From Candidatus Falkowbacteria bacterium (GTDB taxonomy: Bacteria > Patescibacteriota > Patescibacteriia > Patescibacteriales > GWE2-39-37), in contig JBAXJQ010000001.1 of NCBI GenBank assembly GCA_037137775.1, positions 32,316-96,315 on the forward strand: a stretch of DNA of 64,000 nt. The letters are read 5' to 3'. Below, in pieces: positions 26,424-63,101 of this stretch (positions are counted from its first letter, which is position 1; the number at the start of each line of letters is the position of its first letter). The notes under the pieces were generated by a model. It had not been told where the DNA came from and made no database searches. It saw nothing but the letters and a program-made list of their open reading frames with translations. The position numbers and the translations under genes are program-made.

Positions 26424-27122
26424 ATGAATATGGAAAAGCGCGGTGAAAAAATCTTACTTGCTTTAATTAAGGAACATATCAAAAGCGGCCAACCGGTCGG
26501 CTCTGAAGTGTTAGTTAATAAATACAAGCTAGGTGTTTCATCTGCAACCGTTCGTAATGAATTGTCAGCTTTAGAGGAGGGCGGGATGATTATGCAACCG
26601 CACACCTCAGCCGGGCGCGTTCCAACTGAGGCAGCCTATAGGTTTTACTTGGAAAAAAACAAAGCCCGGAAATTAACCGATACGGAGGAACAGCAACTTA
26701 ACGCACTCTTAACCGATACGGAGGAACAAAATCTCAAACAATTAGCCAAAACAGTGGCACAGCAAAGTGGCTTGGCAGTTATATGGGCTTTTCATCGACA
26801 TAATTTATATTATACTGGCATTGCTAATTTTTTATCCCAACCAGAATTCAATCAGCCCAATGTAATTTATGATATTTCGGGTATCATCGATCGTATGGAT
26901 GAGGTAATAGACCAGGTCTTTGATGAGATTTCTTTTACCCCAGAGATTTTACTTGGCTCGGCTAATCCGTTTAGTCCAGTATGTGCCACGGTGATTTCAA
27001 AATACCGGCACGGTAACCACACTGGCTTGGTTGGCATACTTGGACCGATGCGGATGTGCTATGAACGTAATCTTGCCATTGTAGAATATTTATCACAAAA
27101 ATTAAATTCACCTATTATATGA
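26424..27122 (+). CDS. hrcA: Heat-inducible transcription repressor HrcA
   Basis: ILLALIKEHIKSGQPVGSEVL...SSATVRNELSALEEGGMIMQPHTSAGRVPTE is the canonical HrcA N-terminal wHTH. A CIRCE element lies upstream. Confidence 0.85.
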   Translation: MNMEKRGEKILLALIKEHIKSGQPVGSEVLVNKYKLGVSSATVRNELSALEEGGMIMQPHTSAGRVPTEAAYRFYLEKNKARKLTDTEEQQLNALLTDTEEQNLKQLAKTVAQQSGLAVIWAFHRHNLYYTGIANFLSQPEFNQPNVIYDISGIIDRMDEVIDQVFDEISFTPEILLGSANPFSPVCATVISKYRHGNHTGLVGILGPMRMCYERNLAIVEYLSQKLNSPII

Positions 27123-27991
27123 CCAATCAGTCTAAAATTGAACATCCGTTAGCCATTGTTGGTGCTTTCATCTTCAACGACCATGATGAGTTGCTCTTAA
27201 TTTCCGCGCCAAAGTGGTTGGATAAATATGTCGTTCCAGGTGGCAAAGTTGAACTTGGCGAAACCATGGAACAGGCAATACGTCGCGAAATTAAAGAAGA
27301 AACTAATCTTGATTTGGAAGATTTAGAATTGATGGGTGTTTCAGAGCGAGTTGATTCTATGTCTGAAAATAATGCCGGAGTTAAGCACATGATTTTGATT
27401 GATTATAAAGCGAGAGTAAAGAAGCCACAGAAATTAAAATTAAATGATGAAGGTACTGAGTTTAAATGGCAAAAAATTGAGGATTGGCAGAACAATGATT
27501 CGGTTTATGCTGGCACGATGGGCAATATTAAAAAATACTTTCTTGACAAACCTGTAGATGAGTGGGAAGCACAATGCAAACGAGCCTTGGCCGATTATCA
27601 GAATTTACTCAAACAAACTACCAAAGAAAAAAATGAATTTATTAAATTCGCGAACGAGCGAATTATTAATGAATTTTTACCAGTGTATGATAATTTAAAA
27701 CTATCTTTGGCACATATCGATGCGGCGGCAGAAAAAAGTAATTGGCTGGTTGGCGTGCAGTATGTTATTAAGCAATTCAGTGAGATTTTATCACGTCATG
27801 GTGTTGAGGAAGTAAAGACCGTTGGTGAAAAATTTGATCACAGCTCGATGGAAGCGATTGAGAATCAAATTACTGATGATGAAAAACAAGACGATGTGGT
27901 GGTTCGTGAAATTAAATCAGGGTACATGTTACATGGCAAGATAATTACGCCAGCGCGAGTAGTGGTTTATCACTACGAAGTAAAGGCTTAG
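27119..27991 (+). CDS. grpE: NUDIX hydrolase domain fused to nucleotide-exchange factor GrpE
   Basis: Residues 1-140 carry a Nudix box (GKVELGETMEQAIRREIKEETNL fits Gx5Ex7REUxEE). Residues 150-290 are a GrpE coiled-coil plus beta-domain (FANERIINEF...GVEEVKTVGEKFDHSSMEAIE...GKIITPARVVV). The ORF is contiguous and overlaps the hrcA stop. Confidence 0.75.
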   Translation: MTNQSKIEHPLAIVGAFIFNDHDELLLISAPKWLDKYVVPGGKVELGETMEQAIRREIKEETNLDLEDLELMGVSERVDSMSENNAGVKHMILIDYKARVKKPQKLKLNDEGTEFKWQKIEDWQNNDSVYAGTMGNIKKYFLDKPVDEWEAQCKRALADYQNLLKQTTKEKNEFIKFANERIINEFLPVYDNLKLSLAHIDAAAEKSNWLVGVQYVIKQFSEILSRHGVEEVKTVGEKFDHSSMEAIENQITDDEKQDDVVVREIKSGYMLHGKIITPARVVVYHYEVKA

Positions 27992-28057
27992 TTATATATT
28001 AATTATTAAGGCCACCCCAGTGCATATTGCAGTAAGGTGGCACAGGGAGAAAACCAT

Positions 28058-28489
28058 ATGGCTCTCATCAAATGGACGCCCCTCCTTGAACCGTTCGAGG
28101 AGATGGACAAAGTGTTTCACGATTTTCTGCCAACAACCAGGCAGATGGGCTCTGGCTTTATGCCGGCCGTGGATATGTATGAAGATAAAGACAATGTGAC
28201 CGTCGAGGCACAGTTGGCTGGTATTGATCCGGATCAGGTTAGTGTCTCGATCGAAAATGATGTTTTGTCAATTAAGGGAGAAGGTGAAAAAAAGAGCGAG
28301 GTTGAAGAAAAAAATTATTATCGTAAAGAAATTCGTCGAGGCAGTTTTTATCGCTCTATTCAATTGCCGACGCATGTTTTGGGTGACAAAGCCAAGGCAA
28401 CGGCCGAAGATGGCGTATTAAAAATATCGATTCCCAAGGCACCAGAAACCAAGCCGAACACTATTAAGATTGAAACCAAGAAAAAATAA
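28058..28489 (+). CDS. Small heat-shock protein, Hsp20/alpha-crystallin family
   Basis: Alpha-crystallin domain (PAVDMYEDKDNVTVEAQLAGIDPDQVSVSIENDVLSIKGE...RSIQLP). The ATG at 28058 is preceded by AGGGAGA. Confidence 0.8.
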   Translation: MALIKWTPLLEPFEEMDKVFHDFLPTTRQMGSGFMPAVDMYEDKDNVTVEAQLAGIDPDQVSVSIENDVLSIKGEGEKKSEVEEKNYYRKEIRRGSFYRSIQLPTHVLGDKAKATAEDGVLKISIPKAPETKPNTIKIETKKK

Positions 28490-28543
28490 TTGTCGGATGA
28501 TACTTGGCCGAATATTCTTCGGTCAAGACTTGAGCCGAAAATT

Positions 28544-29116
28544 ATGCAAATCGAATACGAAGCCACATTTTATCCAATCGACAAAGACGATATCCGCTCA
28601 CGGTTGTTGGCGGTAGGAGCTGAATTGATTCGCTCAGAGTACGTGCAAGAGCGTTCGAATTATACTTTACCCAGTGGCCATGAAATTGCCGGCGGCTGGA
28701 TTCGCGTGCGTAATGAGGGTGATAAAAATACATTAACGTTAAAAGTGGTCGATGGTGAAAAAATTGAGAATCAGCGCGAAATAACCACAGAAGTAAAAGA
28801 TTTTAACGCAACGAAGCAGTTATTAGAGGCAATCGGCTGTAGACACAAAGCAACCCAGACAACCAAACGGGAATTGTGGCGCATCAAGAGTGTGGAGATT
28901 ATGATTGATGAATGGCCCTGGCTTGAGCCGTTTGTGGAAATTGAAGGGCCGTCAGAAATAGCCGTGCGAAATATTGCAGAAAAGCTCGGCTTTGATTACA
29001 AACAAGCTCATTTCGGCGCTGTTGATTCTTTGTATGCCGCTAAATATGGTATTAGCAAAGAACAAATTAACACGACTGAGCAAGTTACGTTTGAAGGTGA
29101 AAATCCATTTAAATAA
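28544..29116 (+). CDS. CYTH-domain protein (class IV adenylyl cyclase / triphosphatase family)
   Basis: The N-terminal MQIEYEATF corresponds to the EIERKF-type start of CYTH. The acidic beta-barrel pattern follows (WIRVRNEGDKNTLTLKV...EIE). Confidence 0.55.
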   Translation: MQIEYEATFYPIDKDDIRSRLLAVGAELIRSEYVQERSNYTLPSGHEIAGGWIRVRNEGDKNTLTLKVVDGEKIENQREITTEVKDFNATKQLLEAIGCRHKATQTTKRELWRIKSVEIMIDEWPWLEPFVEIEGPSEIAVRNIAEKLGFDYKQAHFGAVDSLYAAKYGISKEQINTTEQVTFEGENPFK

Positions 29117-46531: not shown

Positions 46532-46945
46532 ATGACTAATAAAATTACAATTTATTCCGATGGCGGGGCACGTGGCAATCCAGGCCCAGCAGCCATTGGC
46601 ACGGTGCTGTATGATGAGGGTGGTGTAGTAGTTGCCGAAATTTCAGAATATATTGGTGAGACAACAAATAACCAAGCCGAATACAAGGCGATTATTGCTG
46701 GCCTAATTTGTGCCAAAGAGCTCGGTGCGCAAACGATTGAGTGTTTTCTTGATAGTCTTTTAGTGGTTGAGCAGTTAAATCATCGGTACAAAGTTAAACA
46801 CCCTGGCCTGGCACCCTTGTTTTTAGAAGTACACAATTTACGTCACCATTTTAAGCAAATTAGCTTTCGGCATATCCCTAGAGAAAAAAACAAAGCCGCA
46901 GATAAGTTAGTTAATTTAGCACTGGACAGGGAATTGGGCTGTTAG
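46532..46945 (+). CDS. rnhA: Ribonuclease HI
   Basis: IYSDGGARGNPGPAA, NNQAEYKAIIAGL, DSLLVVEQ and REKNKAADKLVN are RNase H catalytic motifs. Confidence 0.75.
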   Translation: MTNKITIYSDGGARGNPGPAAIGTVLYDEGGVVVAEISEYIGETTNNQAEYKAIIAGLICAKELGAQTIECFLDSLLVVEQLNHRYKVKHPGLAPLFLEVHNLRHHFKQISFRHIPREKNKAADKLVNLALDRELGC

Positions 46946-47618: not shown

Positions 47619-48371
47619 ATGTCACAGTATTATAATCCTAAGCGTACCAAAAATATTTTTAACCCAACTTCTCCGGAGCCGTTCAAAATCAGCCGGTCGA
47701 AAATCGATCTATTTTTGAATTGCCCGCGCTGTTTTTATCTCGATCGCCGGCTTGGCATCGGTCAACCGCCAGGCTTTCCATTCAATCTCAACTCCGCCGT
47801 TGATGCCTTGCTAAAAAAGGAATTTGATATTCATCGGGCAGGGAACACAGCGCATCCTTTGATGAAGGCCTATGGCTTAGATTTAGTTCCGCTGCAGCAC
47901 GAGTTGATGGACGAATGGCGGGAAAATTTTAAGGGAGTGCAGTTTTTGCATGAGTCGACCAATTTCTTGGTTACCGGTGCGGTGGATGATTTATGGGTGG
48001 ATAAGAATAATAAGATTCACATTGTTGATTATAAGGCTACCAGTAAATCGACCGAGGTGAATCTAGATGCGGATTGGCAGATAGGCTATAAGCGCCAGAT
48101 GGAAATTTATCAGTGGTTAGTGCGCAACAACGGTTATACTGTATCGGACGTGGGTTATTTCGTGTATTGCAACGGTAAAACCGACCGTGAGGCCTTTGAT
48201 GGCAAGCTAGAATTTGATATCAAAATTATCCCTTATACCGGTGATGCCTCATGGGTAGAGAAGGAGTTAATTAAAGCGCATGATTGTCTGATGAGCAAAA
48301 AAATTCCTAAGCTGGGTGTCAATTGCGATTATTGCCAGTATGTAGCAGCGGTAGAAAAAGCAACAAAATAG
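47619..48371 (+). CDS. PD-(D/E)xK nuclease-family protein with a 4-Cys cluster (Cas4/RecB-nuclease-like)
   Basis: N-terminal CPRCFY, the core motif VDDLWVDKNNKIHIVDYKATSK (D...DYK) and C-terminal CDYCQY fit Cas4-like and AddB-like Fe-S nuclease domains. Confidence 0.65.
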   Translation: MSQYYNPKRTKNIFNPTSPEPFKISRSKIDLFLNCPRCFYLDRRLGIGQPPGFPFNLNSAVDALLKKEFDIHRAGNTAHPLMKAYGLDLVPLQHELMDEWRENFKGVQFLHESTNFLVTGAVDDLWVDKNNKIHIVDYKATSKSTEVNLDADWQIGYKRQMEIYQWLVRNNGYTVSDVGYFVYCNGKTDREAFDGKLEFDIKIIPYTGDASWVEKELIKAHDCLMSKKIPKLGVNCDYCQYVAAVEKATK

Positions 48372-52515: not shown

Positions 52516-53931
52516 ATGAAGCGATCAGAATTATTTTTTTCTTTTCTTTTGGTGCCGCTCGACTTCGCTATGATTGTCTTGGCTGGAATTTCAGCCTATA
52601 ATTTGCGTTTTGCGCAAATAGCCACGGAAATCCGTCCAGTTATTTTTAATTTGCGTTTCGGTGACTATATTCAAATTTTACTCGGCATTGCGATTGCTTG
52701 GCTTTTTATTTTTGCGTTTGCTGGGTTATATCGCATTCGGGGAAATAAAAGCTTGGTTAACGAATTTTATTCGATTGTTCAAGCTAGCTCTACTGGCTTG
52801 GTGTTAATCGTTTTATTAATTTTCTTTTTTCGCGAGTTATTTTCCTCGCGATTTATTGTATTAGCCGGCTATGTTTTGGCCATGTTGTATATTTTAATTG
52901 CTCGATTGATTGTTCGTTTAATCCAACGCATTTTATATAATCACAATATTGGGGTACGTAAAGTTGTTATTGTGGGTAATGGCAAAACGGCAGATATTTT
53001 AATTGCGTATTTTTCTAGTCGCAAAGTTGCTGGCTATGAAGTTTTTAAGCGTTTGCGTGATTTTAGTTTGGAAACGGCGCAAGAGTTGGCAAAAATGCTT
53101 GAAACGAAAGAGGCGGACGAGATAATTCAATGCGATCCAAATTTATCTAAAGCTGAGGTGGTTCGATTGTTTGATTTTGCTTACGAACACCATTTGAGTT
53201 TTAAATACGCTGCTGACCTACTTGATGCCAAGGTGTTAAAGACAGAGGTGACAGAGGTGGTGGGCATTCCAATAGTAGAGGTAGAACGAACATCGCTAGA
53301 GGGTTGGGGGCGCATTATTAAACGCATTTTTGATATTATTGGTTCAAGCTTAATCATTATTATAATTAGTCCAATATTACTAGTCACTGCTATGTTAATT
53401 AAGCTGGACTCTAGAGGGCCGGTGTTTTTTAATAAGCGTGATGATGGTACGCCAGTTTATCGAGTCGGGCAGGGTGGCAGGTTGTTTAAATATTTTAAAT
53501 TTCGTTCGATGCGCCCTGGAACTGACAATATGCGTTACGCAGAGTTGGCTGGTCAAAATTTACGCAGTGATGGGCCGATGGTAAAAATTAAGGACGACCC
53601 GAGAGTAACTCGCGTGGGGAGATTTATTAGACGATTTAGTATTGATGAACTAGCGGAGCTGTTTTTGGTGCTAAAGGGCGACATGAGCCTAGTTGGTCCT
53701 CGACCACATTTGCCAGAGGAAGTTGCTAAATACGAGCAATCTCACAAAAAAGTGTTAACCATTAAGCCAGGGATAACTGGTTTGGCTCAGGTTTCTGGTC
53801 GCAGTGATTTAACGTTTGAAGAAGAAGTAAAGCTCGATACCTATTATATTGAAAATTGGAGTTTATTATTAGACTTATCAATCATGTTGCAAACCCCGAT
53901 GGCCGTACTAAAAAATCGTCAAGCTGAATAG
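52516..53931 (+). CDS. Polyprenyl-phosphate glycosyl-1-phosphate transferase (bacterial sugar transferase, WbaP/PglB-like with a CoA-binding-like domain)
   Basis: N-terminal TM helices, a Rossmann-like central domain and the C-terminal sugar-transferase motifs GPVFFNKRD...FKFRSM...SLVGPRPHLPEE. Confidence 0.8.
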   Translation: MKRSELFFSFLLVPLDFAMIVLAGISAYNLRFAQIATEIRPVIFNLRFGDYIQILLGIAIAWLFIFAFAGLYRIRGNKSLVNEFYSIVQASSTGLVLIVLLIFFFRELFSSRFIVLAGYVLAMLYILIARLIVRLIQRILYNHNIGVRKVVIVGNGKTADILIAYFSSRKVAGYEVFKRLRDFSLETAQELAKMLETKEADEIIQCDPNLSKAEVVRLFDFAYEHHLSFKYAADLLDAKVLKTEVTEVVGIPIVEVERTSLEGWGRIIKRIFDIIGSSLIIIIISPILLVTAMLIKLDSRGPVFFNKRDDGTPVYRVGQGGRLFKYFKFRSMRPGTDNMRYAELAGQNLRSDGPMVKIKDDPRVTRVGRFIRRFSIDELAELFLVLKGDMSLVGPRPHLPEEVAKYEQSHKKVLTIKPGITGLAQVSGRSDLTFEEEVKLDTYYIENWSLLLDLSIMLQTPMAVLKNRQAE

Positions 53932-53934
53932 CCT

Positions 53935-55053
53935 ATGAAAGTTGCCTTAGTTCATGATCACTTAGCTCAAGATGGTGGCGCGGAAAAAGTATTAAAGGTT
54001 CTAACCGAGCTTTTTCCTGACGCACCGATTTATACGCTATTGTTCGAGCCCAAGAATGTCAGTAAAAATTTTAAGAACAAGGATATTCGGACATCGATTA
54101 TCCAGCGTTTGCCGGGAGGCATAAAACATTATCGATGGTATTTGCCACTCATGCCCATAGCGGTAGAGTTTTTTGATTTGCGAGATTACGACGTGGTCAT
54201 CTCGGATGCCAGCGCATTCGCCAAGGGTGTAATTACCACTTCGGAAACACTTCATATTTGTTATTGCCATACCCCTACACGGTATCTCTGGAGTGATTCT
54301 CACCAATATTTGAATGAGCTTAGCTATAATAAATATTTTAAAAAAATTATCGCGCTTTTGTTAAGTAATTTACGGCTTTGGGATCGAGCTGCAGCAGATC
54401 GGGTTGATACGTTTATTGCTAATTCCAACTTCATCGCTCGTCGCATCACAAAGTATTATAAGCGTGATTCACAGATTATATATCCGCCAGTTGATGTTGA
54501 TCGTTTTGGCATTTCAAAAGAAATTGGTGATTTTTATTTGATTGGTGGTCGGATTGTACCATATAAGCGAATTGATATTACCGTGGAAGCATTTAAAAAA
54601 TGGGGCAAGAAGTTGGTGGTATTTGGTGATGGGGTAGATTTACCTCGCTTAAAGAAAATTGCTGCTGGTGCACCTAATATCGAATTTGTTGGTCGGGTTG
54701 ACGATGCCACGCAAGCGGCACTGTATCAAAAGTGTTTGGCCTTTATTCATCCGCAAGAAGAGGACTTTGGTATTACTGCGGTTGAGGCCATGGCGTCTGG
54801 ACGGCCTGTTGTTGCCTATGGCCGGGGTGGGATACTGGAAATTGTAGCCAATCATAAGACGGGGGTGTTTTTTCACGAACAAACGGCTGACGGGTTACTT
54901 CGCGTCTTAGAGCGTTTTAATCCATTGGCATTTGACCCCAACGTTATTCGCGCCAAGGCCGAGTCATTTTCACGGGAGCGGTTTCGTCAGGAATTAAAAC
55001 ATTTTATCGAGCAAGAATATTGTCGCTTTACTCAAGGTAAGTGTGATTTTTAA
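53935..55053 (+). CDS. Family 4 glycosyltransferase
   Basis: GT-B fold with the EEDFGITAVEAMASGRPVVAYGRGG (E-x7-E) motif. Confidence 0.8.
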   Translation: MKVALVHDHLAQDGGAEKVLKVLTELFPDAPIYTLLFEPKNVSKNFKNKDIRTSIIQRLPGGIKHYRWYLPLMPIAVEFFDLRDYDVVISDASAFAKGVITTSETLHICYCHTPTRYLWSDSHQYLNELSYNKYFKKIIALLLSNLRLWDRAAADRVDTFIANSNFIARRITKYYKRDSQIIYPPVDVDRFGISKEIGDFYLIGGRIVPYKRIDITVEAFKKWGKKLVVFGDGVDLPRLKKIAAGAPNIEFVGRVDDATQAALYQKCLAFIHPQEEDFGITAVEAMASGRPVVAYGRGGILEIVANHKTGVFFHEQTADGLLRVLERFNPLAFDPNVIRAKAESFSRERFRQELKHFIEQEYCRFTQGKCDF

Positions 55054-55055
55054 TT

Positions 55056-56213
55056 ATGCGTATTGGCATCGATGCCACGCCCTTGCTAGATAAGCAATAT
55101 AGTGGCGTGTCAGAATTAACGTATCAATTGCTCAAAAATATTATTCCACAAGATCAGGACAATACCTATGTCCTGTTTTGTAATTCAAGACACAAATTGC
55201 CCGTAAATTTTAATGAATTGACTCGACTAGGTGCAAAAGTTGAAACAACACACTATCCTAGTAAAGTATTTAATTATATTTTACAAAAACGTCTGGGGTA
55301 TCCCAAATTAGACAAGAGAACTAACGCTGATATTTTTTATTCGCCACATTTTAATTTCGGTGCAATTTTGAAGGCCACTCCAGCGATAATGACCGTGCAT
55401 GACGTCTCATTTTTGCATTATCCGGAATTTTTTTCTTGGCGTAAAAATGTATGGCATCGTCAACTTGATATTATTCCCTTACTGCAAAAACAAAACAGGC
55501 TAGTAGCAGTTAGTGAACAAACCAAGCAAGATGTGATTCGAATGTGTCAGATTGATGCGGAAAAAATTTCCGTTGTGTATCCTGGTATTAATTCGTTGTA
55601 TCTAAATAATGCGACAAGTCAAAATGACAAAGACGCAATTGTTGAAAAATATCATTTGCCCAAAAAGTTTATTTATACATTAGGCACCATTGAGCCTCGT
55701 AAAAATATTGATGGTTTAATTCTGGCATATGAAGCACTGCGAGAAAAATACCAAGATTTAAGTGAATATCATTTAGTGATCGCTGGAGCCTCTGGTTGGA
55801 AAAATAGCGCGATTTATCAAACATGGGAAAAATCAAAATTTAAAAATCAAATTCATTTTTTAGGCTATGTGCCGCTTGAAGACAAGCTTGGCTTGTACCA
55901 GCTTGCTACCATTTTTGTTTATCTTTCATATTATGAGGGGTTTGGCTTCCCACCACTCGAAGCGATGGCCTCTGGCACGCCAGTGGTTTCTAGTTATGCT
56001 GGTAGCTTGGCAGAGGTCTTAGCAGACGCAGCATTATTAGTTGATCCCTATAATCATTTAGACGCAACCGAAGCCATGGCAACCATGCTTCAATCCGAAT
56101 CGGTGCGTCAAATCTATATTGAGCGAGGCTTAAATCAAGCCAAGCAATTTAACTGGAAAAATACTGCTCTAAAATATTTAGAGATTTTTAAGACTGCTAA
56201 AAAGATTAAATAA
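55056..56213 (+). CDS. Family 4 glycosyltransferase
   Basis: YEGFGFPPLEAMASGTPVVSS motif and a GT-B fold. Confidence 0.8.
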   Translation: MRIGIDATPLLDKQYSGVSELTYQLLKNIIPQDQDNTYVLFCNSRHKLPVNFNELTRLGAKVETTHYPSKVFNYILQKRLGYPKLDKRTNADIFYSPHFNFGAILKATPAIMTVHDVSFLHYPEFFSWRKNVWHRQLDIIPLLQKQNRLVAVSEQTKQDVIRMCQIDAEKISVVYPGINSLYLNNATSQNDKDAIVEKYHLPKKFIYTLGTIEPRKNIDGLILAYEALREKYQDLSEYHLVIAGASGWKNSAIYQTWEKSKFKNQIHFLGYVPLEDKLGLYQLATIFVYLSYYEGFGFPPLEAMASGTPVVSSYAGSLAEVLADAALLVDPYNHLDATEAMATMLQSESVRQIYIERGLNQAKQFNWKNTALKYLEIFKTAKKIK

Positions 56214-56892
56214 TTTTAGTGCCAATAAATTTTTGACTGGTTAAGCATTTACGCAGATTAGCATAATTTTTTCCATCAAGAATATCAACTTCCAGACCTA
56301 GTTTGTGGGCTAGTTTGCTCGCTACTGGATCAAAAGGAGCATTGGCTCCAGGTGACCATTTTTCGGGCAAAAGTTTGCGAAATTCAGGCCAGTTGATTTT
56401 AGTAATCGGGTGAGCATTTTTATATTTAGCCGGGTCTTTATCATAAACACAGGTGATGTTTGATAGGTTCAATATTCGCTTTGCCTTGAGTTGTTTTGCA
56501 ATTAAGACGGCAACATAATCCGTACTCCGACCAGGCTTCCAGCCCGCGGCTATTAAAATTGATTCCGAAAAATGAATTTTTTCTAGCGGATGTGTAATAA
56601 TTTTAGGATTTGCACTTTGATAAAAAATAGTGCGGAGTAAGTGCGCATTTAATCGAGTGCTGTGAATTCCAAGCCAGTCAAGATCCTCGTCAGTTAATTT
56701 AATAACGCTTTTGGCAGCAGATTGATAATATCGACAGGTTTTGCCGCCGCCACAAATTAACACAAATCGTTCGCCCTTGGTAGTTAAATTATCAATGACC
56801 CGTTTAAAGCTTTTTAAAAACGCGACATCAATCTGATCTGGCACAATCAAAGAGCCACCCAGTGAAATTATTGTTATATTATTGTTATTCAT
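56206..56892 (-). CDS. pyrH: Amino-acid-kinase-family protein, probable archaeal-type UMP kinase
   Basis: IISLGGSLI and LICGGGKTCRYY resemble archaeal-type UMPK glycine motifs. Its 3' end is convergent with the upstream GT4 gene and overlaps it by 8 nt. Confidence 0.5.
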   Translation of the reverse strand: MNNNNITIISLGGSLIVPDQIDVAFLKSFKRVIDNLTTKGERFVLICGGGKTCRYYQSAAKSVIKLTDEDLDWLGIHSTRLNAHLLRTIFYQSANPKIITHPLEKIHFSESILIAAGWKPGRSTDYVAVLIAKQLKAKRILNLSNITCVYDKDPAKYKNAHPITKINWPEFRKLLPEKWSPGANAPFDPVASKLAHKLGLEVDILDGKNYANLRKCLTSQKFIGTKII

Positions 56893-57511: not shown

Positions 57512-57635
57512 ATTATTGAAATTAATTATTTAGTCCCCTTATTTTATCACCAAAACGTGCAAATCGTCAATCTTTACGCTTTTGCAATAAATCTTGTTTT
57601 TTATCAAAAATTAGGCTATTATTTAAACAAATCAT

Positions 57636-58838
57636 ATGAAATACGTCCATATTTTAGGTATTAGTCTGCCAGTGATGTCGAGTGGTGAGATTTGGCGACA
57701 AATCACTGCCTGGTGTGATAGTGAGGATCATCATCAGATTGTAACGCTAAATCCGGAAATAATTTTGGCTGCCCAGCAGGATGAGGAGCTCTTTTATATT
57801 ATTAATCAATCCCAATTGGTTTTGGCTGATGGTTTTGGACTGATCTTGGCTGCAAGTTTATCCGGTAGTAAAATAGCACGCGTTACCGGCGCAGATTTAG
57901 TGCCACAGATTTTAAATTATGCCAAGGTTCACGAGCTAAAAGTATTAATACTTGATTGGAATAAAGGATTATCTAAGTCAGCAGATATTTATGGGGTTAT
58001 AGCCGATAGATTTTCCGGCCTTAAAGCATTAGTATGTGATATCGAAAAGGATGGTGCGGATTTGCCCTTGAATCAAATTTCAGAGTTCGCTCCTCATATT
58101 GCATTGGTTGGTCTAGGTGCACCTTGGCAAGAAAAAATTATTTATCATCAACTCAAGCATTTACCAAGTCTTCGGTTGTCAACCGGCGTTGGTGGCTCGT
58201 TTGATTTTTTAACCAAAAAAATTACACGCGCACCCAAATGGATGCGATTTATTGGTATTGAGTGGCTGTGGCGTCTGTTAAAACAACCAAGTCGGTTAAA
58301 ACGGATATATAATGCGACCGTTATTTTTTTCGCCATGTTTTTGTTTTACCGCTTTGTTCAACCGAAGTTATATCGACCGAATGTGGCATGTTGGCTGTAC
58401 AAGTCAGAGCAGGGCAAGGATTATGTTTTGTTAGTACAACGTGCGCAAAGTAATACAGTTCATTGGCAATTGCCTCAAGGGGGCCGAAGTTTTGAATCGA
58501 TAAAAAAAGCTGGTTTACGAGAATTAAAAGAAGAATTAAATACTGATTCGATTGTTGCTAAAAAAGATTTTAAAAATTTGCATCAATATCGATTTCCTAA
58601 TCATAATCCATCACTCGAGCGTGAACGCCATGGTGGTTGGCGGGGTCAAAAGCAGTCATTATTAATTGCAGAGTTTACTGGTAAAGACGAGGATGTCTCG
58701 GTTAATTTTTGGGATCATTCCGGGTGGCGCTGGGTACCGGTTGAAGAAATTGTCGATCAGGTGCATGAAGTGCGTAAACCTTCAGCCAAAATTTTTTTAG
58801 AAAAATTTAAAGAATTTAAAAAAACTATTAATCGATAA
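57636..58838 (+). CDS. WecB/TagA/CpsF-family (GT26) glycosyltransferase fused to a C-terminal NUDIX hydrolase domain
   Basis: Residues 1-220 are GT26 (VTLNPEIILAAQQDEEL, VGLGAPWQEKIIY). A TM-like segment follows, then a Nudix box GGRSFESIKKAGLRELKEELN (x7-RE-L-x-EE). Confidence 0.65.
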   Translation: MKYVHILGISLPVMSSGEIWRQITAWCDSEDHHQIVTLNPEIILAAQQDEELFYIINQSQLVLADGFGLILAASLSGSKIARVTGADLVPQILNYAKVHELKVLILDWNKGLSKSADIYGVIADRFSGLKALVCDIEKDGADLPLNQISEFAPHIALVGLGAPWQEKIIYHQLKHLPSLRLSTGVGGSFDFLTKKITRAPKWMRFIGIEWLWRLLKQPSRLKRIYNATVIFFAMFLFYRFVQPKLYRPNVACWLYKSEQGKDYVLLVQRAQSNTVHWQLPQGGRSFESIKKAGLRELKEELNTDSIVAKKDFKNLHQYRFPNHNPSLERERHGGWRGQKQSLLIAEFTGKDEDVSVNFWDHSGWRWVPVEEIVDQVHEVRKPSAKIFLEKFKEFKKTINR

Positions 58839-58847
58839 TTTAACTAT

Positions 58848-60344
58848 ATGTCAGACATTCGTTTACGTTTTGCTCCATCACCTACTGGATTCGTCCATAT
58901 CGGCAGCCTTCGTACCGTGTTATATAATTTTTTAATTGCTAAATCACTGGGTGGTAAATTAATTTTACGCATCGAAGATACTGATCAAAAGCGCGAGGTG
59001 CTTGGTGCGGCAGAGCATCTAGTTCAGGTTTTAGATTGGGTAGGTATTAAGTTTGACGAAGGACCGGAAATCGGTGGTAGTTTTGGGCCGTATATCCAAA
59101 GCCAACGACGTGAGATTTATGATCAATATGCCGAGCGACTACTTGCCACTGGCAATGCCTATCGTTGTTTCTGTTCAGTTGAACGAATTCAAAAATTAAA
59201 AGAGGATTTAATAGTTAACAAACTGCCACCTCGCTACGATGGCACTTGTCGCCATATAGATTCGGTCGTCTCAGCAGAGCGCGCCGCTAAAGGGGAACCA
59301 TTCACTATCCGCCAAGCGATTCCGACCGAGGGTGAGTTGGTGGTACACGACGAACTGCGTGGTGATATAACATTTAAAGTTGAACATCTTGAAGATCATG
59401 TTTTAATTAAAACTGATGGTATGCCAACCTATCAGTTTGCCAATGTGATTGACGATCATTTAATGGAAATAACTCATGTGGTTCGTGGCGACGAATGGAT
59501 TCCTTCATTTCCGAAAAACATTTTGCTATATCGGGCATTCGACTGGCAGCCACCTAAATTTGTTCACATTCCTTTGATTTTAAACAAAGAAGGTGGCAAA
59601 CTTTCAAAACGACATAGTGATGTGGCGGTAGAAGATTATAAAGTTAATGGCTATTTACCCGAGGCAATGATAAATTTTTGCACCTTGCTAGGTTGGCACC
59701 CGAAAGGAGATAATGAAATATTATCCTTGCCCCAAATCGTGGCAGAATTTAATATTAACAATATCGGCATTAGCCCGGCTATATTTGATCTTGATAAATT
59801 GAATTATTTTAATGGGTATTATATTAGACAACTTTCTTTAGAGGATTTAACGAAAAAGGTTAAACCATATTTAATTGAAGCAAATTTATTAGCAGAAGAA
59901 TCTGGAGATTTACGCAATAATCTAACTGGTGACAAAATTTCAGAAATTGACCTGCAAGCTATTGTGGGGCTTGCCAGAGATCGGTTAAAAAAATTAAATG
60001 AAATAAGCGAATTGACCGATTTCATTTTTCAGCCAAAACTCAAATTTGAACCAGAACTTTTGATGTGGAAAAATTTTGAAAAACCAGTAATTGTAAAAAA
60101 TCTTTCCTTGGTTCAAACTTGGCTCGAACTGGTTAATGAATCTAGTTGGAATCGGAATAGTTTAGAAGAAATTGTCATTAAACATATCGCTGATAATAAT
60201 CTCACGGTCGGGGAAGTGCTCTGGCCGATGAGGGTAGCATTGACAGGACGCAAAGCTAGCCCGGGGCCATTTGAAGTTGCTGAAGTATTGGGAAAAAAAT
60301 CGGTATTAATTCGACTGCACTCTGCTATTGCTAAGCTCAGCTAA
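58848..60344 (+). CDS. gltX: Glutamyl-tRNA synthetase
   Basis: RFAPSPTGFVHIGSLRT (HIGH), KLSKRH (KMSKS) and the class I catalytic core with anticodon-binding domains. Confidence 0.9.
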   Translation: MSDIRLRFAPSPTGFVHIGSLRTVLYNFLIAKSLGGKLILRIEDTDQKREVLGAAEHLVQVLDWVGIKFDEGPEIGGSFGPYIQSQRREIYDQYAERLLATGNAYRCFCSVERIQKLKEDLIVNKLPPRYDGTCRHIDSVVSAERAAKGEPFTIRQAIPTEGELVVHDELRGDITFKVEHLEDHVLIKTDGMPTYQFANVIDDHLMEITHVVRGDEWIPSFPKNILLYRAFDWQPPKFVHIPLILNKEGGKLSKRHSDVAVEDYKVNGYLPEAMINFCTLLGWHPKGDNEILSLPQIVAEFNINNIGISPAIFDLDKLNYFNGYYIRQLSLEDLTKKVKPYLIEANLLAEESGDLRNNLTGDKISEIDLQAIVGLARDRLKKLNEISELTDFIFQPKLKFEPELLMWKNFEKPVIVKNLSLVQTWLELVNESSWNRNSLEEIVIKHIADNNLTVGEVLWPMRVALTGRKASPGPFEVAEVLGKKSVLIRLHSAIAKLS

Positions 60345-60393: not shown

Positions 60394-61653
60394 ATGAGTC
60401 GATTATCCATGCGAACAATTTTTTGGTCGCTAAAACTTTTAGCCGGAGGTATTTTTTTATCAGCGATTATCATTGCTTTTTTTGCGTTTGATATTAAACT
60501 CACCCTAGGGCAGGATCAGCCAGAGTCTGCTGAAGTGAAAAAAATTAGCGATCAAATAAAAGCCAAAAAAGATCGAGCCGACGAGCTTTCCAGACGGCAA
60601 GAAGAATATGCCAAAGCTCTAGAACAAAAGCAGAGTGAAAAGCTTGATTTGACCAATCAGATGGGTATTTTAGATAATCGGGTTGCCTCACTAGAATTAG
60701 ATATTATGCGCACCGGCCTAGAAATTGATCAAGTAACATTGGAAATTAAAAAGCTATCCTTAGAAATTAGCGATAAAGAGGATAAGTTGGTACAAGAAAA
60801 GGAACATATTGCTACTATTTTACGTGCACTACATCAGCAGGATCGAGTTAACACTTTACAAGTATTATTATTAAATGATTCTCTGTCAGATTTTTTAAAT
60901 CAGGTAAAATATTTGGAAGATGTTAATAGTGAGTTAGGCGACAGTGTTCGCGAATTGGAAAAATTACGTGATGAGTTGTTATTGCAAAAAGCTAATCAGG
61001 AAAAAAAGAATACAGATTTAGCAATTTTAAAGAAAGATCTGGATGACAAAAAAACAGCATTATTAGCTGAAAAGGAAAGCAAGCAATTTTTAATAGTTCA
61101 AACTGAGTCTTCGGAAATAGAGTTTCAACGACTAATTCGATTAGCCAAGCAAGAACAGGCGCAAGCCGCTTCCGATGTAGTATCGCTTGAAAAGGCGATG
61201 CGTGAAAAACTGGAGCAGCAAAAGAATAAAAAATTAGTTTTAAATCCCAACGGCTTAATCTGGCCAGTAACTAAAAACACGGTTACAGCTTATTTTCATG
61301 ATCCAGATTATCCATTTCGCTATGTCTTTGAGCATCCAGCCATTGATATTCGGGCCAAGCAGGGAACTGTCATACGAGCAGCCGCCTCTGGTTACGTTGC
61401 CCGGGCTAAAGATGCAGGACAGGGGTATAGTTATATTATGATTGTCCATGGCGACGGTCTCTCTACCGTTTATGGCCATGTTTCTAAGATTATGGTTGAT
61501 GAAGAGCAATATGTAGTTCAAGGTCAGCAAATTGGCCTTTCTGGTGGTACCCCAGGCACTCCTGGCGCAGGCAACATGACCTCTGGCCCCCATCTTCATT
61601 TCGAGGTACGACTAAATGGTATTCCGGTTAATCCTTTGGAATATTTGAAATAA
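60394..61653 (+). CDS. EnvC-like coiled-coil M23 metallopeptidase (peptidoglycan DD-endopeptidase)
   Basis: N-terminal TM, a long coiled-coil and a C-terminal M23 domain with the HxxxD (HPAIDIRA) and HLHFE (HxH) zinc ligands. Confidence 0.8.
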   Translation: MSRLSMRTIFWSLKLLAGGIFLSAIIIAFFAFDIKLTLGQDQPESAEVKKISDQIKAKKDRADELSRRQEEYAKALEQKQSEKLDLTNQMGILDNRVASLELDIMRTGLEIDQVTLEIKKLSLEISDKEDKLVQEKEHIATILRALHQQDRVNTLQVLLLNDSLSDFLNQVKYLEDVNSELGDSVRELEKLRDELLLQKANQEKKNTDLAILKKDLDDKKTALLAEKESKQFLIVQTESSEIEFQRLIRLAKQEQAQAASDVVSLEKAMREKLEQQKNKKLVLNPNGLIWPVTKNTVTAYFHDPDYPFRYVFEHPAIDIRAKQGTVIRAAASGYVARAKDAGQGYSYIMIVHGDGLSTVYGHVSKIMVDEEQYVVQGQQIGLSGGTPGTPGAGNMTSGPHLHFEVRLNGIPVNPLEYLK

Positions 61654-61666
61654 TTTTAGCCTCTTT

Positions 61667-62461
61667 ATGAAAAAAATAGTAATTTTAATGTGCTTAATTT
61701 TTGTTTTGCCTTTATATTCCTTGGCAGCTGATTTTACCAAGGAAGCAGAGGCTGTAGTTAAAAGCGGTAAAGACGTAAATCAACTTTTGAAAAATACAAA
61801 AAGTAAAATTGATGTAAAGGGCCAAAAATCTACAATGGAATTTGACACTGAACCCTTAGTTAAGGGGTTCAAAGTTTCAACAGCGCAAAAGTATTCAATT
61901 AATAATTTTATTCTTTATGGCACGAATTCAACAAAAAAGTTTCGGCAAGTTTTCAGAAAAGAGATGATTAAAAATTTTATATACAAAAATAAAAAACTTC
62001 CGGAATCAGCTAAGGATTGGGAAAAAATATTGTCTAGAAATAACTCTGCTAATAGTTGCTTGCCAATGCCAAATAAAAGTATAATTCCCAATGGTTATGA
62101 TTTTAAAAAACAAGAAGATCAAACATTATTTACAGCCTTTGGCGAATGCTCAAATATATTTGTTTTAGGGAGTGGTAATTATTTCTCTCCAACATCAACC
62201 TCAATTTCTGTTTATAACTCTCCACTTGAATCTTCACAAATCATTCAAAAGTTAAAAAATGATACAAATTGGAAACTCATTGAACAAAAAACAAATAATA
62301 AAATCTTAATTTCAGTTTTTAGATCAAATTATGATACAAATAAAACCAGCTATCAACTAGTAGCAAAATATTATAACGGTAGTATAATTTTTATTTCTTT
62401 TGATAATGCAAAGAAGGACGACATGCTTTTAATGATGCAAAAGTATGTTAAATCAAAATAA
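61667..62461 (+). CDS. Hypothetical secreted protein (signal peptide), AT-rich
   Basis: MKKIVILMCLIFVLPLYSLAADF signal peptide. It is Lys/Asn-rich with no recognised motif. Composition is shifted relative to the upstream genes. Confidence 0.45.
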   Translation: MKKIVILMCLIFVLPLYSLAADFTKEAEAVVKSGKDVNQLLKNTKSKIDVKGQKSTMEFDTEPLVKGFKVSTAQKYSINNFILYGTNSTKKFRQVFRKEMIKNFIYKNKKLPESAKDWEKILSRNNSANSCLPMPNKSIIPNGYDFKKQEDQTLFTAFGECSNIFVLGSGNYFSPTSTSISVYNSPLESSQIIQKLKNDTNWKLIEQKTNNKILISVFRSNYDTNKTSYQLVAKYYNGSIIFISFDNAKKDDMLLMMQKYVKSK

Positions 62462-62474
62462 TAAAATTAATTTT

Positions 62475-63101
62475 ATGAAAAAATTAATAAATTTAGTTTT
62501 AATTATATCGACAGTATTTTTTCTGCAAACAGGAATTTTACAAGCAGCAAGCACTTCAACTATTCCAAAAAAATTAAAAATCTCAACTGCTAGTCTTAAT
62601 AATTATCAAGCTCAAATACCCTTAGATAAAATAGTTGCTAAAATAAAAATTAGCACTGAAAAACAAAAATTAATTGTAAGTGACAAGTGGTGTGGTAATC
62701 TAAATTATATGTCTGATTGTCAAATTGTGTATCGTTTAATAAGTGACACAAAAGGAAAATCCAATGCTTTTATGGTTGGGTTAAACGCTGAAACGGTTGC
62801 AACTACCTCGACAGATAAAAATACAATCAAAAAATTAATCAGTTCAAAAGTCAAAAAGAGCTTTTTAGCGGGTAAAAAACAAGATTGTATTAAAAATAAA
62901 TGCACAAACCTTAGTATAAAAGGCGCAGACTCTGCTTATAAGATATCAACTGGTACAATAAAGGCATTAAAGGGGGGTATTGTCGTTACAATAGTTGATG
63001 AATCAAATAAATTTAGTAAATTATCAAAAGAGATAGCCCCTCAAATTTTAACTCAAGTTGGCAGCGGTTTGGATTACCAAAAATTTACCCCAAAATTTTA
63101 A
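62475..63101 (+). CDS. Hypothetical secreted protein (signal peptide), AT-rich
   Basis: MKKLINLVLIISTVFFLQTGILQAAS signal peptide with no recognised motif. The start is taken at the ATG at 62475. Confidence 0.45.
   Translation: MKKLINLVLIISTVFFLQTGILQAASTSTIPKKLKISTASLNNYQAQIPLDKIVAKIKISTEKQKLIVSDKWCGNLNYMSDCQIVYRLISDTKGKSNAFMVGLNAETVATTSTDKNTIKKLISSKVKKSFLAGKKQDCIKNKCTNLSIKGADSAYKISTGTIKALKGGIVVTIVDESNKFSKLSKEIAPQILTQVGSGLDYQKFTPKF

Follow-up and report, generated by a model that had tools for sequence, protein, structure and literature searches.

The stretch of DNA analysed here, referred to below as the window, comprises 64,000 nucleotides from contig JBAXJQ010000001.1 of a Candidatus Falkowbacteria bacterium (GenBank assembly GCA_037137775.1). 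At positions 57636..58838, on the plus strand, it contained a complete fusion gene with an ATG start, encoding 400 amino acids plus a stop codon, in which a family 26 glycosyltransferase (GT26) is followed by a C-terminal RppH-type Nudix hydrolase. A preliminary description, prepared from the sequence alone, had claimed a GT26-then-NUDIX architecture for this gene, and Pfam matches to both domains bore it out: PF03808 (Glyco_tran_WecG) covered residues 60-225 (E = 3.7e-35) with 121.7 bits, where the cutoff is 27.4, and PF00293 (NUDIX) covered residues 246-385 (E = 3.4e-13) with 50.2 bits, where the cutoff is 21.1. That the C-terminal region folds as a Nudix domain was confirmed by the profile match above its cutoff and by Foldseek matches to more than 30 Nudix structures. 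A protein from a Candidatus Falkowbacteria metagenome-assembled genome (MAG; P0001) was 100% identical to the fusion protein. The AlphaFold2 model of the fusion protein, for which 40 homologues were given as input, was confident (mean predicted local distance difference test, pLDDT, 93.4; predicted template modelling score, pTM, 0.84), and in it the Nudix domain starts right after the last helix of the GT26 tail, with no low-confidence linker. One polypeptide contains a complete TagA-like enzyme, including its tail, and then a complete RppH-like Nudix domain. Both GT26 and NUDIX are familiar kinds of domain, and it is their fixed combination that is an unstudied variant; no publication on a GT26-NUDIX architecture was found in the literature searched. 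Database names for the fusion proteins read 'WecB/TagA/CpsF family glycosyltransferase' only, and the RppH-like half that is missing from these names calls for a correction of the annotation.

The GT26 half and its tail

The Rossmann-like GT26 core domain spans residues 1-195 (57636..58220, plus strand) and was recognized by PF03808, by TIGR00696 (105.2 bits for the fusion protein against a cutoff of 69), and by matches to TagA. The N-terminal 246 residues matched Thermoanaerobacter italicus TagA (7mpk) with E = 2e-22 in phmmer, in an alignment that extended through the tail to residue 227, and the N-terminal half of the model matched the TagA structures 7n41/5wb4 with E = 1.7e-13 and a template modelling (TM) score of 0.86, normalised to the target, in Foldseek. 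The conserved residues important to catalysis by TagA include D65 of the core and E210, W211, R214, R221, and R224 of the C-terminal tail (PMC8784642). Residue conservation in the fusion family was assessed in two sets, consisting of 40 database homologues and of 81 sequences drawn independently from genomes. D65 of the fusion protein, the equivalent of the catalytic base, was invariant in both sets. E209, W210, R213, R220, and R223, which correspond to the five TagA tail residues, were likewise invariant in both, except for a W-to-T change in one of the 81 sequences. Judged by these sequence features, the GT26 half is a sound member of its family. With equivalog scores far below the cutoffs, it is not a demonstrable TagA or WecG in the strict sense of an enzyme that transfers ManNAc or ManNAcA to GlcNAc-PP-undecaprenol.

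The C-terminal tail of the GT26 half (residues 196-244; 58221..58367, plus strand) was delimited by the TagA alignment and by the helices of the model, which comprise residues 201-206, 209-216, and 218-244 and are the equivalents of TagA helices H10'-H12'. In TagA, these helices form the tail that closes over the UDP-sugar (UDP, uridine diphosphate), and a hydrophobic patch made up of I203, L209, L212, and I216 binds the membrane (PMC8784642). The patch residues correspond to W202, I208, L211, and L215 of the fusion protein, with the one-residue offset of the TagA alignment. The preliminary description had placed a hydrophobic segment between the two domains. Such a segment does exist, at about residues 226-244, but it is not an extra inter-domain element: it is the C-terminal part of the long helix 218-244 of the model, which matches TagA H12', the last tail helix of the GT26 fold. 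The best 19-residue Kyte-Doolittle mean of the segment was 1.36 and its homologues carried two to four charged residues. The segment is not predicted to be transmembrane because of this low mean and these charges, and a reading of residues 226-244 as a transmembrane helix was ruled out by the same features together with the equivalence to H12'.

The Nudix half

The RppH/NudH-type Nudix domain spans residues 245-400 (58368..58835, plus strand) and was identified by PF00293, by NCBIfam models, and by sequence and fold matches to PDB entries. Its Nudix box, GGRSFESIKKAGLRELKEELNTD, occupies residues 282-304 (58479..58547, plus strand), and the REUxEE core is intact (R295, E296, E299, and E300). 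The string quoted for this box in the preliminary description, GGRSFESIKKAGLRELKEELN, was present as residues 282-302 (nucleotides 58479-58541). The X7 spacing of the consensus GX5EX7REUXEEXGU is kept, E296, E299, and E300 were invariant or nearly so in the homologues, and N302 occupies the usual glycine position of the box. All five of the top NCBIfam Nudix models were RppH models, and the top Nudix fold match of the model in Foldseek was E. coli RppH (4s2x; E = 2e-11, TM 0.75-0.78).

The ligands of E. coli RppH provide a more specific comparison. Its phosphate ligands are R8, N10, R27, Q37, Y77, Q95, and K140, and its magnesium ligands are E53, E57, Q37, and E120 (PMC7144940). In a HMMER alignment, the phosphate ligands corresponded, in the same order, to R247, N249, R269, Q281, Y318, Q338, and R380 of the fusion protein, and the metal ligands E53, E57, and E120 corresponded to E296, E300, and D360 (the last being D or E in the family), with Q37 again corresponding to Q281. 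All ten of these ligand-equivalent positions were invariant or conservatively substituted in the fusion family. With the conservation of the GT26 residues described above, this pattern indicates that both catalytic residue sets are under purifying selection.

An exhaustive search in which the query was the Nudix domain alone returned 679 cluster representatives. The best matches were almost all proteins of about 400 residues in which the match lay at the C-terminus, and free-standing proteins of about 150 residues appeared from near E = 1e-12. The nearest stand-alone relatives, P0183 (151 bits) and P0198 (162 bits), passed the NCBIfam RppH equivalog cutoff of 116. A PtsP-like gene (GAF plus PEP-utilizers domains) was found near P0183; in E. 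coli, rppH adjoins ptsP. Eighteen Nudix positions were at least 85% conserved in 62 fusion representatives; 17 of them were also common to 44 stand-alone RppH-like proteins, and the eighteenth, R380, was R or K in the latter. No invariant Nudix residue specific to the fusion was found across the 62 representatives, which argues for retained family chemistry. Three histidines (H276, H361, and H377) had been considered as a marker of a new specificity and were rejected, as they were fixed only in a narrower Falkowbacteria-type set and not across the 62 fusion representatives. On the combined evidence of profiles, aligned ligands, and fold matches, the Nudix half is of the RppH/NudH type.

Spread of the fusion, a second Nudix fusion, and neighbouring genes

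The fusion was found to be widespread. At least 120 of the top protein clusters (45-50% identity) were about 390-460 residues long, and all but one of them carried both domains in precomputed annotations. More divergent representatives (P0144, P0164, P0188, P0240, and P0153) likewise consisted of GT26 plus NUDIX. A genome scan, in which each GTDB species was represented by one genome, identified 216 species-level relatives, and the loci of the best 80 of these, plus two metagenome loci, were inspected. A single open reading frame (ORF) held both domains at these loci, with one exception-like locus (L048), in which the fusion is split into ORFs of 297 and 81 residues by a frameshift or an assembly error. 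The mean pairwise identities of the two halves (49% and 52%) point to similar evolutionary rates.

Several apparent stand-alone Nudix genes within the fusion clade (P0123, P0128, P0135, and others) were rejected as such, being truncated fusion ORFs that start in helix H12' or in the middle of the Nudix domain. A gap in score separated the truncated fusion fragments (at least 115 bits) from the true stand-alone Nudix proteins (at most 111 bits). No unfused tagA-rppH pair that could represent the ancestral state was found at the 80 loci with the clade-specific peptide patterns used, which distant unfused arrangements could escape, and in neither of the two stand-alone relatives inspected did the Nudix gene adjoin a GT26 gene.

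The record titles of the relatives were overwhelmingly those of Falkowbacteria, Patescibacteria, or Parcubacteria MAGs. The fusion gene was also present in many MAGs titled 'uncultured Gammaproteobacteria bacterium' (L006, L007, L011, L013, and others) and in one titled 'Methanosarcinaceae archaeon' (L035). At these off-lineage loci the glutamyl-tRNA synthetase gene gltX lay downstream wherever the contig extended far enough, and in several of them, including L035, an M23 peptidase gene was found as well. Because the same gene and the same downstream genes occur there, the off-lineage titles look like problems of labelling or binning, and they are probably wrong or placeholder taxonomic labels or binning contamination. 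Comparison of the sequences indicates that the fusion is old and fixed in Falkowbacteria-related Patescibacteria, with both active sites kept.

A second Nudix fusion, with NUDIX at residues 13-123 and GrpE at residues 142-283 (Pfam), was encoded at 27119..27991 on the plus strand. The preliminary description had reported two different Nudix fusions in one 64-kb window, both with N in place of G in an REUxEE-x-N box, and it was right on both counts. A six-frame scan for RE[LIVMFA]xEE recovered the two boxes and detected no further Nudix box uninterrupted by in-frame stops in the window. Its proposal that a single ancestral Nudix gene had been dispersed as a mobile domain did not survive comparison of the two domains, which belong to different subfamilies and are similar at the superfamily level only. 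When they were aligned with each other, BLASTP significance was limited to the 18-residue Nudix box (E = 0.008 in a single comparison), and the profile-profile identity of the two families was 17%, which is ordinary superfamily-level homology. Among solved structures, the GrpE-fused Nudix domain was closest to MutT-like proteins, NUDT18, and NUDX1, and its matches included neither lupin Ap4A (diadenosine tetraphosphate) hydrolase nor E. coli RppH. The only RppHs that it matched, weakly, were the unrelated ones of Bdellovibrio (3ees) and B. subtilis (4jzu), and among NCBIfam models it matched only those for NAD (nicotinamide adenine dinucleotide) diphosphatase and MutT, weakly. A hidden Markov model (HMM) of the GT26-type Nudix domain gave a median of 85 bits for stand-alone RppH-like proteins and a median of 0 bits, with a maximum of 26.8, for 120 NUDIX-GrpE proteins, and the reverse comparison with an HMM of the GrpE-type Nudix domain was symmetrical. 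No NUDIX-GrpE protein was as close to the GT26-fused Nudix domain as at least 150 cluster representatives were, some of them free-standing RppH-like proteins.

The shared asparagine was also ruled out as a shared derived character. The usual glycine position was N in 41, G in 33, and another residue in 7 of the 81 sequences of the GT26-fusion family, and N in 27 and G in 6 of 33 sequences of the GrpE family. Polymorphic in both families, N is a recurrent, tolerated substitution and no marker of shared descent. The position probably caps the Nudix helix, and glycine, asparagine, and aspartate would be the usual interchangeable residues there. NUDIX-GrpE is itself an old family of Patescibacteria: more than 120 clusters, at identities of 44-53%, carry both Pfam domains without exception. 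It thus resembles GT26-NUDIX in its superfamily, its lineage, its age and conservation as a fusion, and the N or G at the usual glycine position. In contrast to GT26-NUDIX, its Nudix domain is N-terminal and of a MutT/NUDX1-like subfamily, and the cross-scores between the two are near zero.

Further features were observed around the NUDIX-GrpE gene. Its MutT-like Nudix box is intact, with R56, E57, E60, and E61 invariant, and a DnaK nucleotide-exchange factor here carries a Nudix domain that looks active. The gene lies in a chaperone cluster in the order hrcA-like gene, nudix-grpE, small heat-shock-like ORF, CYTH, dnaK, and dnaJ, in which the hrcA-like and heat-shock-like labels are putative. 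The CYTH-domain protein, encoded at 28490-29116 between the putative small heat-shock-like ORF (28037-28489) and dnaK, scored 44.9 bits against class IV adenylate cyclase / triphosphate tunnel enzymes, under the cutoff of 58. The chaperone cluster thus embeds two nucleotide-polyphosphate enzymes, namely the CYTH protein and the Nudix domain on GrpE.

The neighbourhood of the GT26-Nudix gene was partly conserved. Downstream, gltX (58848..60344, plus strand; Pfam tRNA-synt_1c in relatives) starts 9 bp past the stop codon of the fusion gene, with no terminator-like site between them. It was downstream in 71 of the 82 loci, with a gap of at most 45 bp in about half of these. The third gene of the cluster encodes an M23 peptidase (60394..61653, plus strand; PF01551), and the order of fusion gene, gltX, and M23 peptidase gene was conserved in relatives, which together with the short gap and the lack of a terminator-like site supports a reading as an operon. 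Upstream, a divergent intergenic region of 124 bp (57512..57635) separates the fusion gene from a sod gene on the minus strand and is the likely promoter region; the promoter-like matches on both of its strands were consensus matches only, and their count was not clearly above shuffle expectation. An archaeal-type uridylate (UMP) kinase gene (56206-56892, minus strand; 192 bits with TIGR02076, whose cutoff is 158) lies two genes upstream of the fusion gene and adjoins the Fe/Mn superoxide dismutase gene. In place of the superoxide dismutase and UMP kinase of this window, CorA on the opposite strand occupies this upstream position in many relatives, with GT4 (glycosyltransferase family 4) genes beyond. 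The UMP kinase neighbour was dropped as a clue to the pathway, its position not being conserved in relatives. Farther upstream, the window contained an EPS (exopolysaccharide)-type polyprenyl glycosylphosphotransferase gene (52516-53931, plus strand; TIGR03025, 385.5 bits against a cutoff of 295.6) and two GT4 genes identified by profile scan (53935-55053 and 55056-56213, both plus strand). An EPS-type polyprenyl hexose-1-phosphate transferase is the initiating enzyme near the fusion, and the two GT4 enzymes come after it.

Other features of the window were recorded along with these genes. Two adjacent ORFs of 264 and 218 residues (61667-63101), with no Pfam or NCBIfam match, lie downstream of the M23 peptidase gene and are followed, as in relatives, by a tyrosine recombinase (XerC/D-like) gene on the minus strand. 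A gene for a small RNase H / RVT_3-type protein (46532-46942) stands directly after recJ and is followed by a PD-(D/E)XK nuclease gene (47619-48371). The G+C content of the window is about 40%, all 2-kb bins from 1 to 64000 have a positive GC skew, and nearly all long, non-overlapped ORFs are on the plus strand. The genes are strongly co-oriented, and all of the window appears to belong to a single replichore.

Proposed function and comparison with known systems

The reading that we favour, at a probability of about 0.5, is that the fusion protein combines a GT26 enzyme at the cytoplasmic face of the membrane, which extends a polyprenyl-diphosphate-linked glycan and releases UDP, with an RppH/NudH-type Nudix domain that hydrolyses a nucleotide 5'-terminal polyphosphate. 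The analysis showed the architecture, the two folds, the gene order, the conserved state of both catalytic sets, and that the fusion is fixed; that the protein is membrane-associated, what its two halves act on, and that their activities are coupled in any way are inferences from these. A bifunctional, membrane-peripheral enzyme would have arisen in Falkowbacteria-related Patescibacteria through an old gene fusion. Its GT26 half, an inverting transferase of the TagA/WecG kind that is predicted to be catalytically competent, would most likely use a UDP-sugar to extend a saccharide linked to polyprenyl diphosphate, with release of UDP, and this acceptor may be begun by the neighbouring EPS-type enzyme or a similar phosphoglycosyl transferase. 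By analogy with TagA, the C-terminal tail would close the active site and supply a membrane-binding patch. The Nudix half, likewise predicted to be competent, would carry out magnesium-dependent cleavage of a terminal pyrophosphate linkage at a nucleotide 5' end, for which the candidate substrates are 5'-triphosphorylated or 5'-diphosphorylated RNA, RNA capped with a nucleoside tetraphosphate (Np4), and dinucleoside polyphosphates (NpnN). The joining of the Nudix domain to a membrane-peripheral GT26 enzyme would place an RppH-type activity at the membrane, beside an enzyme of envelope-glycan synthesis.

Several observations weigh against this reading. On the GT26 side, the scores fell short for both the TarA equivalog NF041710 (95.5 bits against a cutoff of 350) and the WecG equivalog NF002980 (88.7 against 323), and neither a UDP-GlcNAc (UDP-N-acetylglucosamine) 2-epimerase nor WecA/TagO was found among the approximately 40 ORFs scanned of the 64-kb window. 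On the Nudix side, the best RppH model, NF001938, scored 71.8 bits, under its equivalog cutoff of 116. The closest solved relative by sequence was not RppH but the lupin Ap4A hydrolase 1f3y (E = 1.3e-11), and the next were ten E. coli RppH entries at E of about 1e-5. The first loop of the Nudix box reads GX4E and is one residue short relative to E. coli RppH, with the gap opposite P42 of the latter. In E. coli RppH, the cleft for the second nucleobase is formed by R27 with V137/F139 and S32 (PMC7144940). R27 is kept in the fusion protein, but S32 is replaced by H276, V137 by H377, and F139 by a variable residue; with these residues changed, RNA recognition may differ or be lost.

The altered cleft of the Falkowbacteria-type clade would fit a second explanation, a more specific form of the proposal in the preliminary description, in which the Nudix half clears the product or the donor of its partner. 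It would hydrolyse the released UDP to UMP plus inorganic phosphate, which would relieve product inhibition, or the UDP-sugar donor, which would throttle the pathway. Golgi nucleoside diphosphatases relieve product inhibition of eukaryotic glycosyltransferases in this way, and that a Nudix enzyme can act on a polysaccharide precursor is exemplified by WcaH/NudD, a GDP-mannose (guanosine diphosphate mannose) mannosyl hydrolase encoded in the colanic-acid cluster. Removal of the terminal phosphate of UDP is the same chemistry as that of RppH on 5'-diphosphorylated RNA, and slow hydrolysis of nucleoside diphosphates and triphosphates by E. coli RppH has been described (PMC7144940), which would bring UDP removal chemically within reach. 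No split fusion was found in the 80 genomes, the pTM of 0.84 suggests that the predicted arrangement of the two domains is fixed, and the UMP kinase gene lies two genes away. However, this neighbour is not conserved (CorA takes its place in many relatives), no fusion-specific conserved residue marks a new pocket for uracil or sugar, and the phosphates of mononucleotides bound to E. coli RppH do not reach the catalytic site (PMC7144940). Clearance is the main rival of the favoured reading, although a rather unlikely one.

The covalent link might itself be functional and couple, at the membrane, the hydrolysis of nucleotide or RNA-5'-end pyrophosphate with the synthesis of the envelope. This stronger claim is doubtful. 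Should it hold, UDP would be cleared where it is produced, or 5'-end-dependent mRNA decay would be tied to the flux of envelope precursors. The opposite view, that two unrelated housekeeping genes were joined for convenience in a streamlined genome and work independently, sharing only their expression, overlaps with the favoured reading, the one point of difference being the importance of co-localisation. In its favour, RppH-type Nudix domains have other, varied fusion partners (Polysacc_deac_2 and radical SAM/SPASM proteins), the same lineage fuses a different Nudix domain to GrpE, and the downstream gltX has no obvious functional link. On the other hand, more than 200 species retain an unbroken fusion at identities of 35-50%, a split version was not found, and in the model the Nudix domain follows directly on the last TagA-like helix with no low-confidence linker (pTM 0.84). 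Independent operation is quite improbable. The idea that a membrane-held Nudix domain dephosphorylates polyprenyl diphosphate at the cytoplasmic face (for example newly made undecaprenyl diphosphate to undecaprenyl phosphate) and so feeds carrier lipid into the neighbouring phosphoglycosyl transferase/GT26 pathway can draw on the same chemistry (removal of a terminal phosphate from a diphosphate monoester), on the partner being a membrane-peripheral enzyme that would use a polyprenyl-diphosphate-linked acceptor, and on the existence of prenyl-diphosphate Nudix enzymes such as geranyl diphosphate phosphohydrolase (6ypb), but these enzymes match the MutT/NUDX1-like GrpE-fused family and not the GT26-fused Nudix domain, in which the whole RppH signature is conserved, including R269 (the equivalent of the nucleobase-stacking R27 of E. 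coli RppH), and no hydrophobic-groove signature was seen in the conserved positions, which leaves it highly improbable.

The Patescibacteria, uncultivated bacteria with reduced genomes, are biochemically poorly understood, and a fusion kept in more than 200 species is a concrete and testable clue to their biology. It would represent either an RppH-type enzyme, a candidate for the first step of 5'-end-dependent RNA decay, tethered to the membrane, or the addition of nucleotide clearing to lipid-linked glycan assembly. If the two halves work independently, the finding reduces to a tidy point of annotation and no more.

Among known systems, the GT26 half is closest to TagA/TarA (T. italicus; 5WB4, 5WFG, 7MPK, and 7N41), an N-acetylglucosaminyldiphosphoundecaprenol N-acetyl-beta-D-mannosaminyltransferase. 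The two have the same fold, Asp65, and the E, W, and three R residues of the tail at a one-residue offset, and the positions of the fusion protein that are equivalent to the TagA membrane patch are hydrophobic too. Their identity is about 24%, and TagA stops at residue 244, where the fusion protein runs into its Nudix domain. The initiating enzyme also differs, being TagO/WecA in the TagA pathway and an EPS-type phosphoglycosyl transferase of the hexose-1-phosphate type near the fusion. GT26 enzymes that act after initiators of the Bac_transf type include GumM, which follows GumD, and HfsJ, which follows HfsE, and the GT26 half of the fusion may resemble them.

The Nudix half shares with E. 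coli RppH/NudH (4S2X, 4S2Y, 6VCK, and 7SP3) the motifs YRPNV, WQxPQGG, REUxEE, GQKQ, and GWxWV. The identity between them is about 25%, and in its clade the fusion Nudix domain is never free-standing but covalently joined to GT26. The plant-type Ap4A hydrolase of Lupinus angustifolius (1F3Y/1JKN) is its best sequence relative, aligned over about 150 residues, and belongs to the same RppH/NudH-like subgroup. It is, however, a stand-alone eukaryotic enzyme that acts on dinucleoside polyphosphates, and its fold match was slightly weaker than that of E. coli RppH.

The diaminopimelate epimerase DapF makes a peptidoglycan precursor and is in this sense a cell-envelope enzyme. In E. coli, DapF binds RppH and enhances its activity (PMC6061855, PMC6061791). 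In the RppH-DapF complex (5YGU, 6D13, and 6D1Q), as in the fusion, an RppH-type Nudix enzyme is physically associated with another enzyme; the complex is non-covalent and involves a soluble epimerase, whereas the fusion is covalent and involves a predicted membrane-peripheral glycosyltransferase. Because DapF belongs to peptidoglycan-precursor synthesis, the pair is a partial precedent for physical coupling, and the covalent case beside the non-covalent one opens the association of RppH with envelope enzymes to experiment. An RppH-type Nudix domain was also found fused to a radical SAM (S-adenosylmethionine)/SPASM enzyme (P0256/P0391) and, in a Holosporaceae MAG (P0220, MDR1561356.1), to a divergent polysaccharide deacetylase (Polysacc_deac_2), with an RppH part that scores above the equivalog cutoff. 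By analogy, the DapF-RppH pair and the Polysacc_deac_2-RppH fusion suggest that an association of RppH with cell-envelope enzymes may recur, which is to be taken as a lead only; if its link is functional, the GT26-Nudix fusion would be a covalent counterpart of DapF-RppH and a further instance of this association, at which the Polysacc_deac_2-RppH protein hints.

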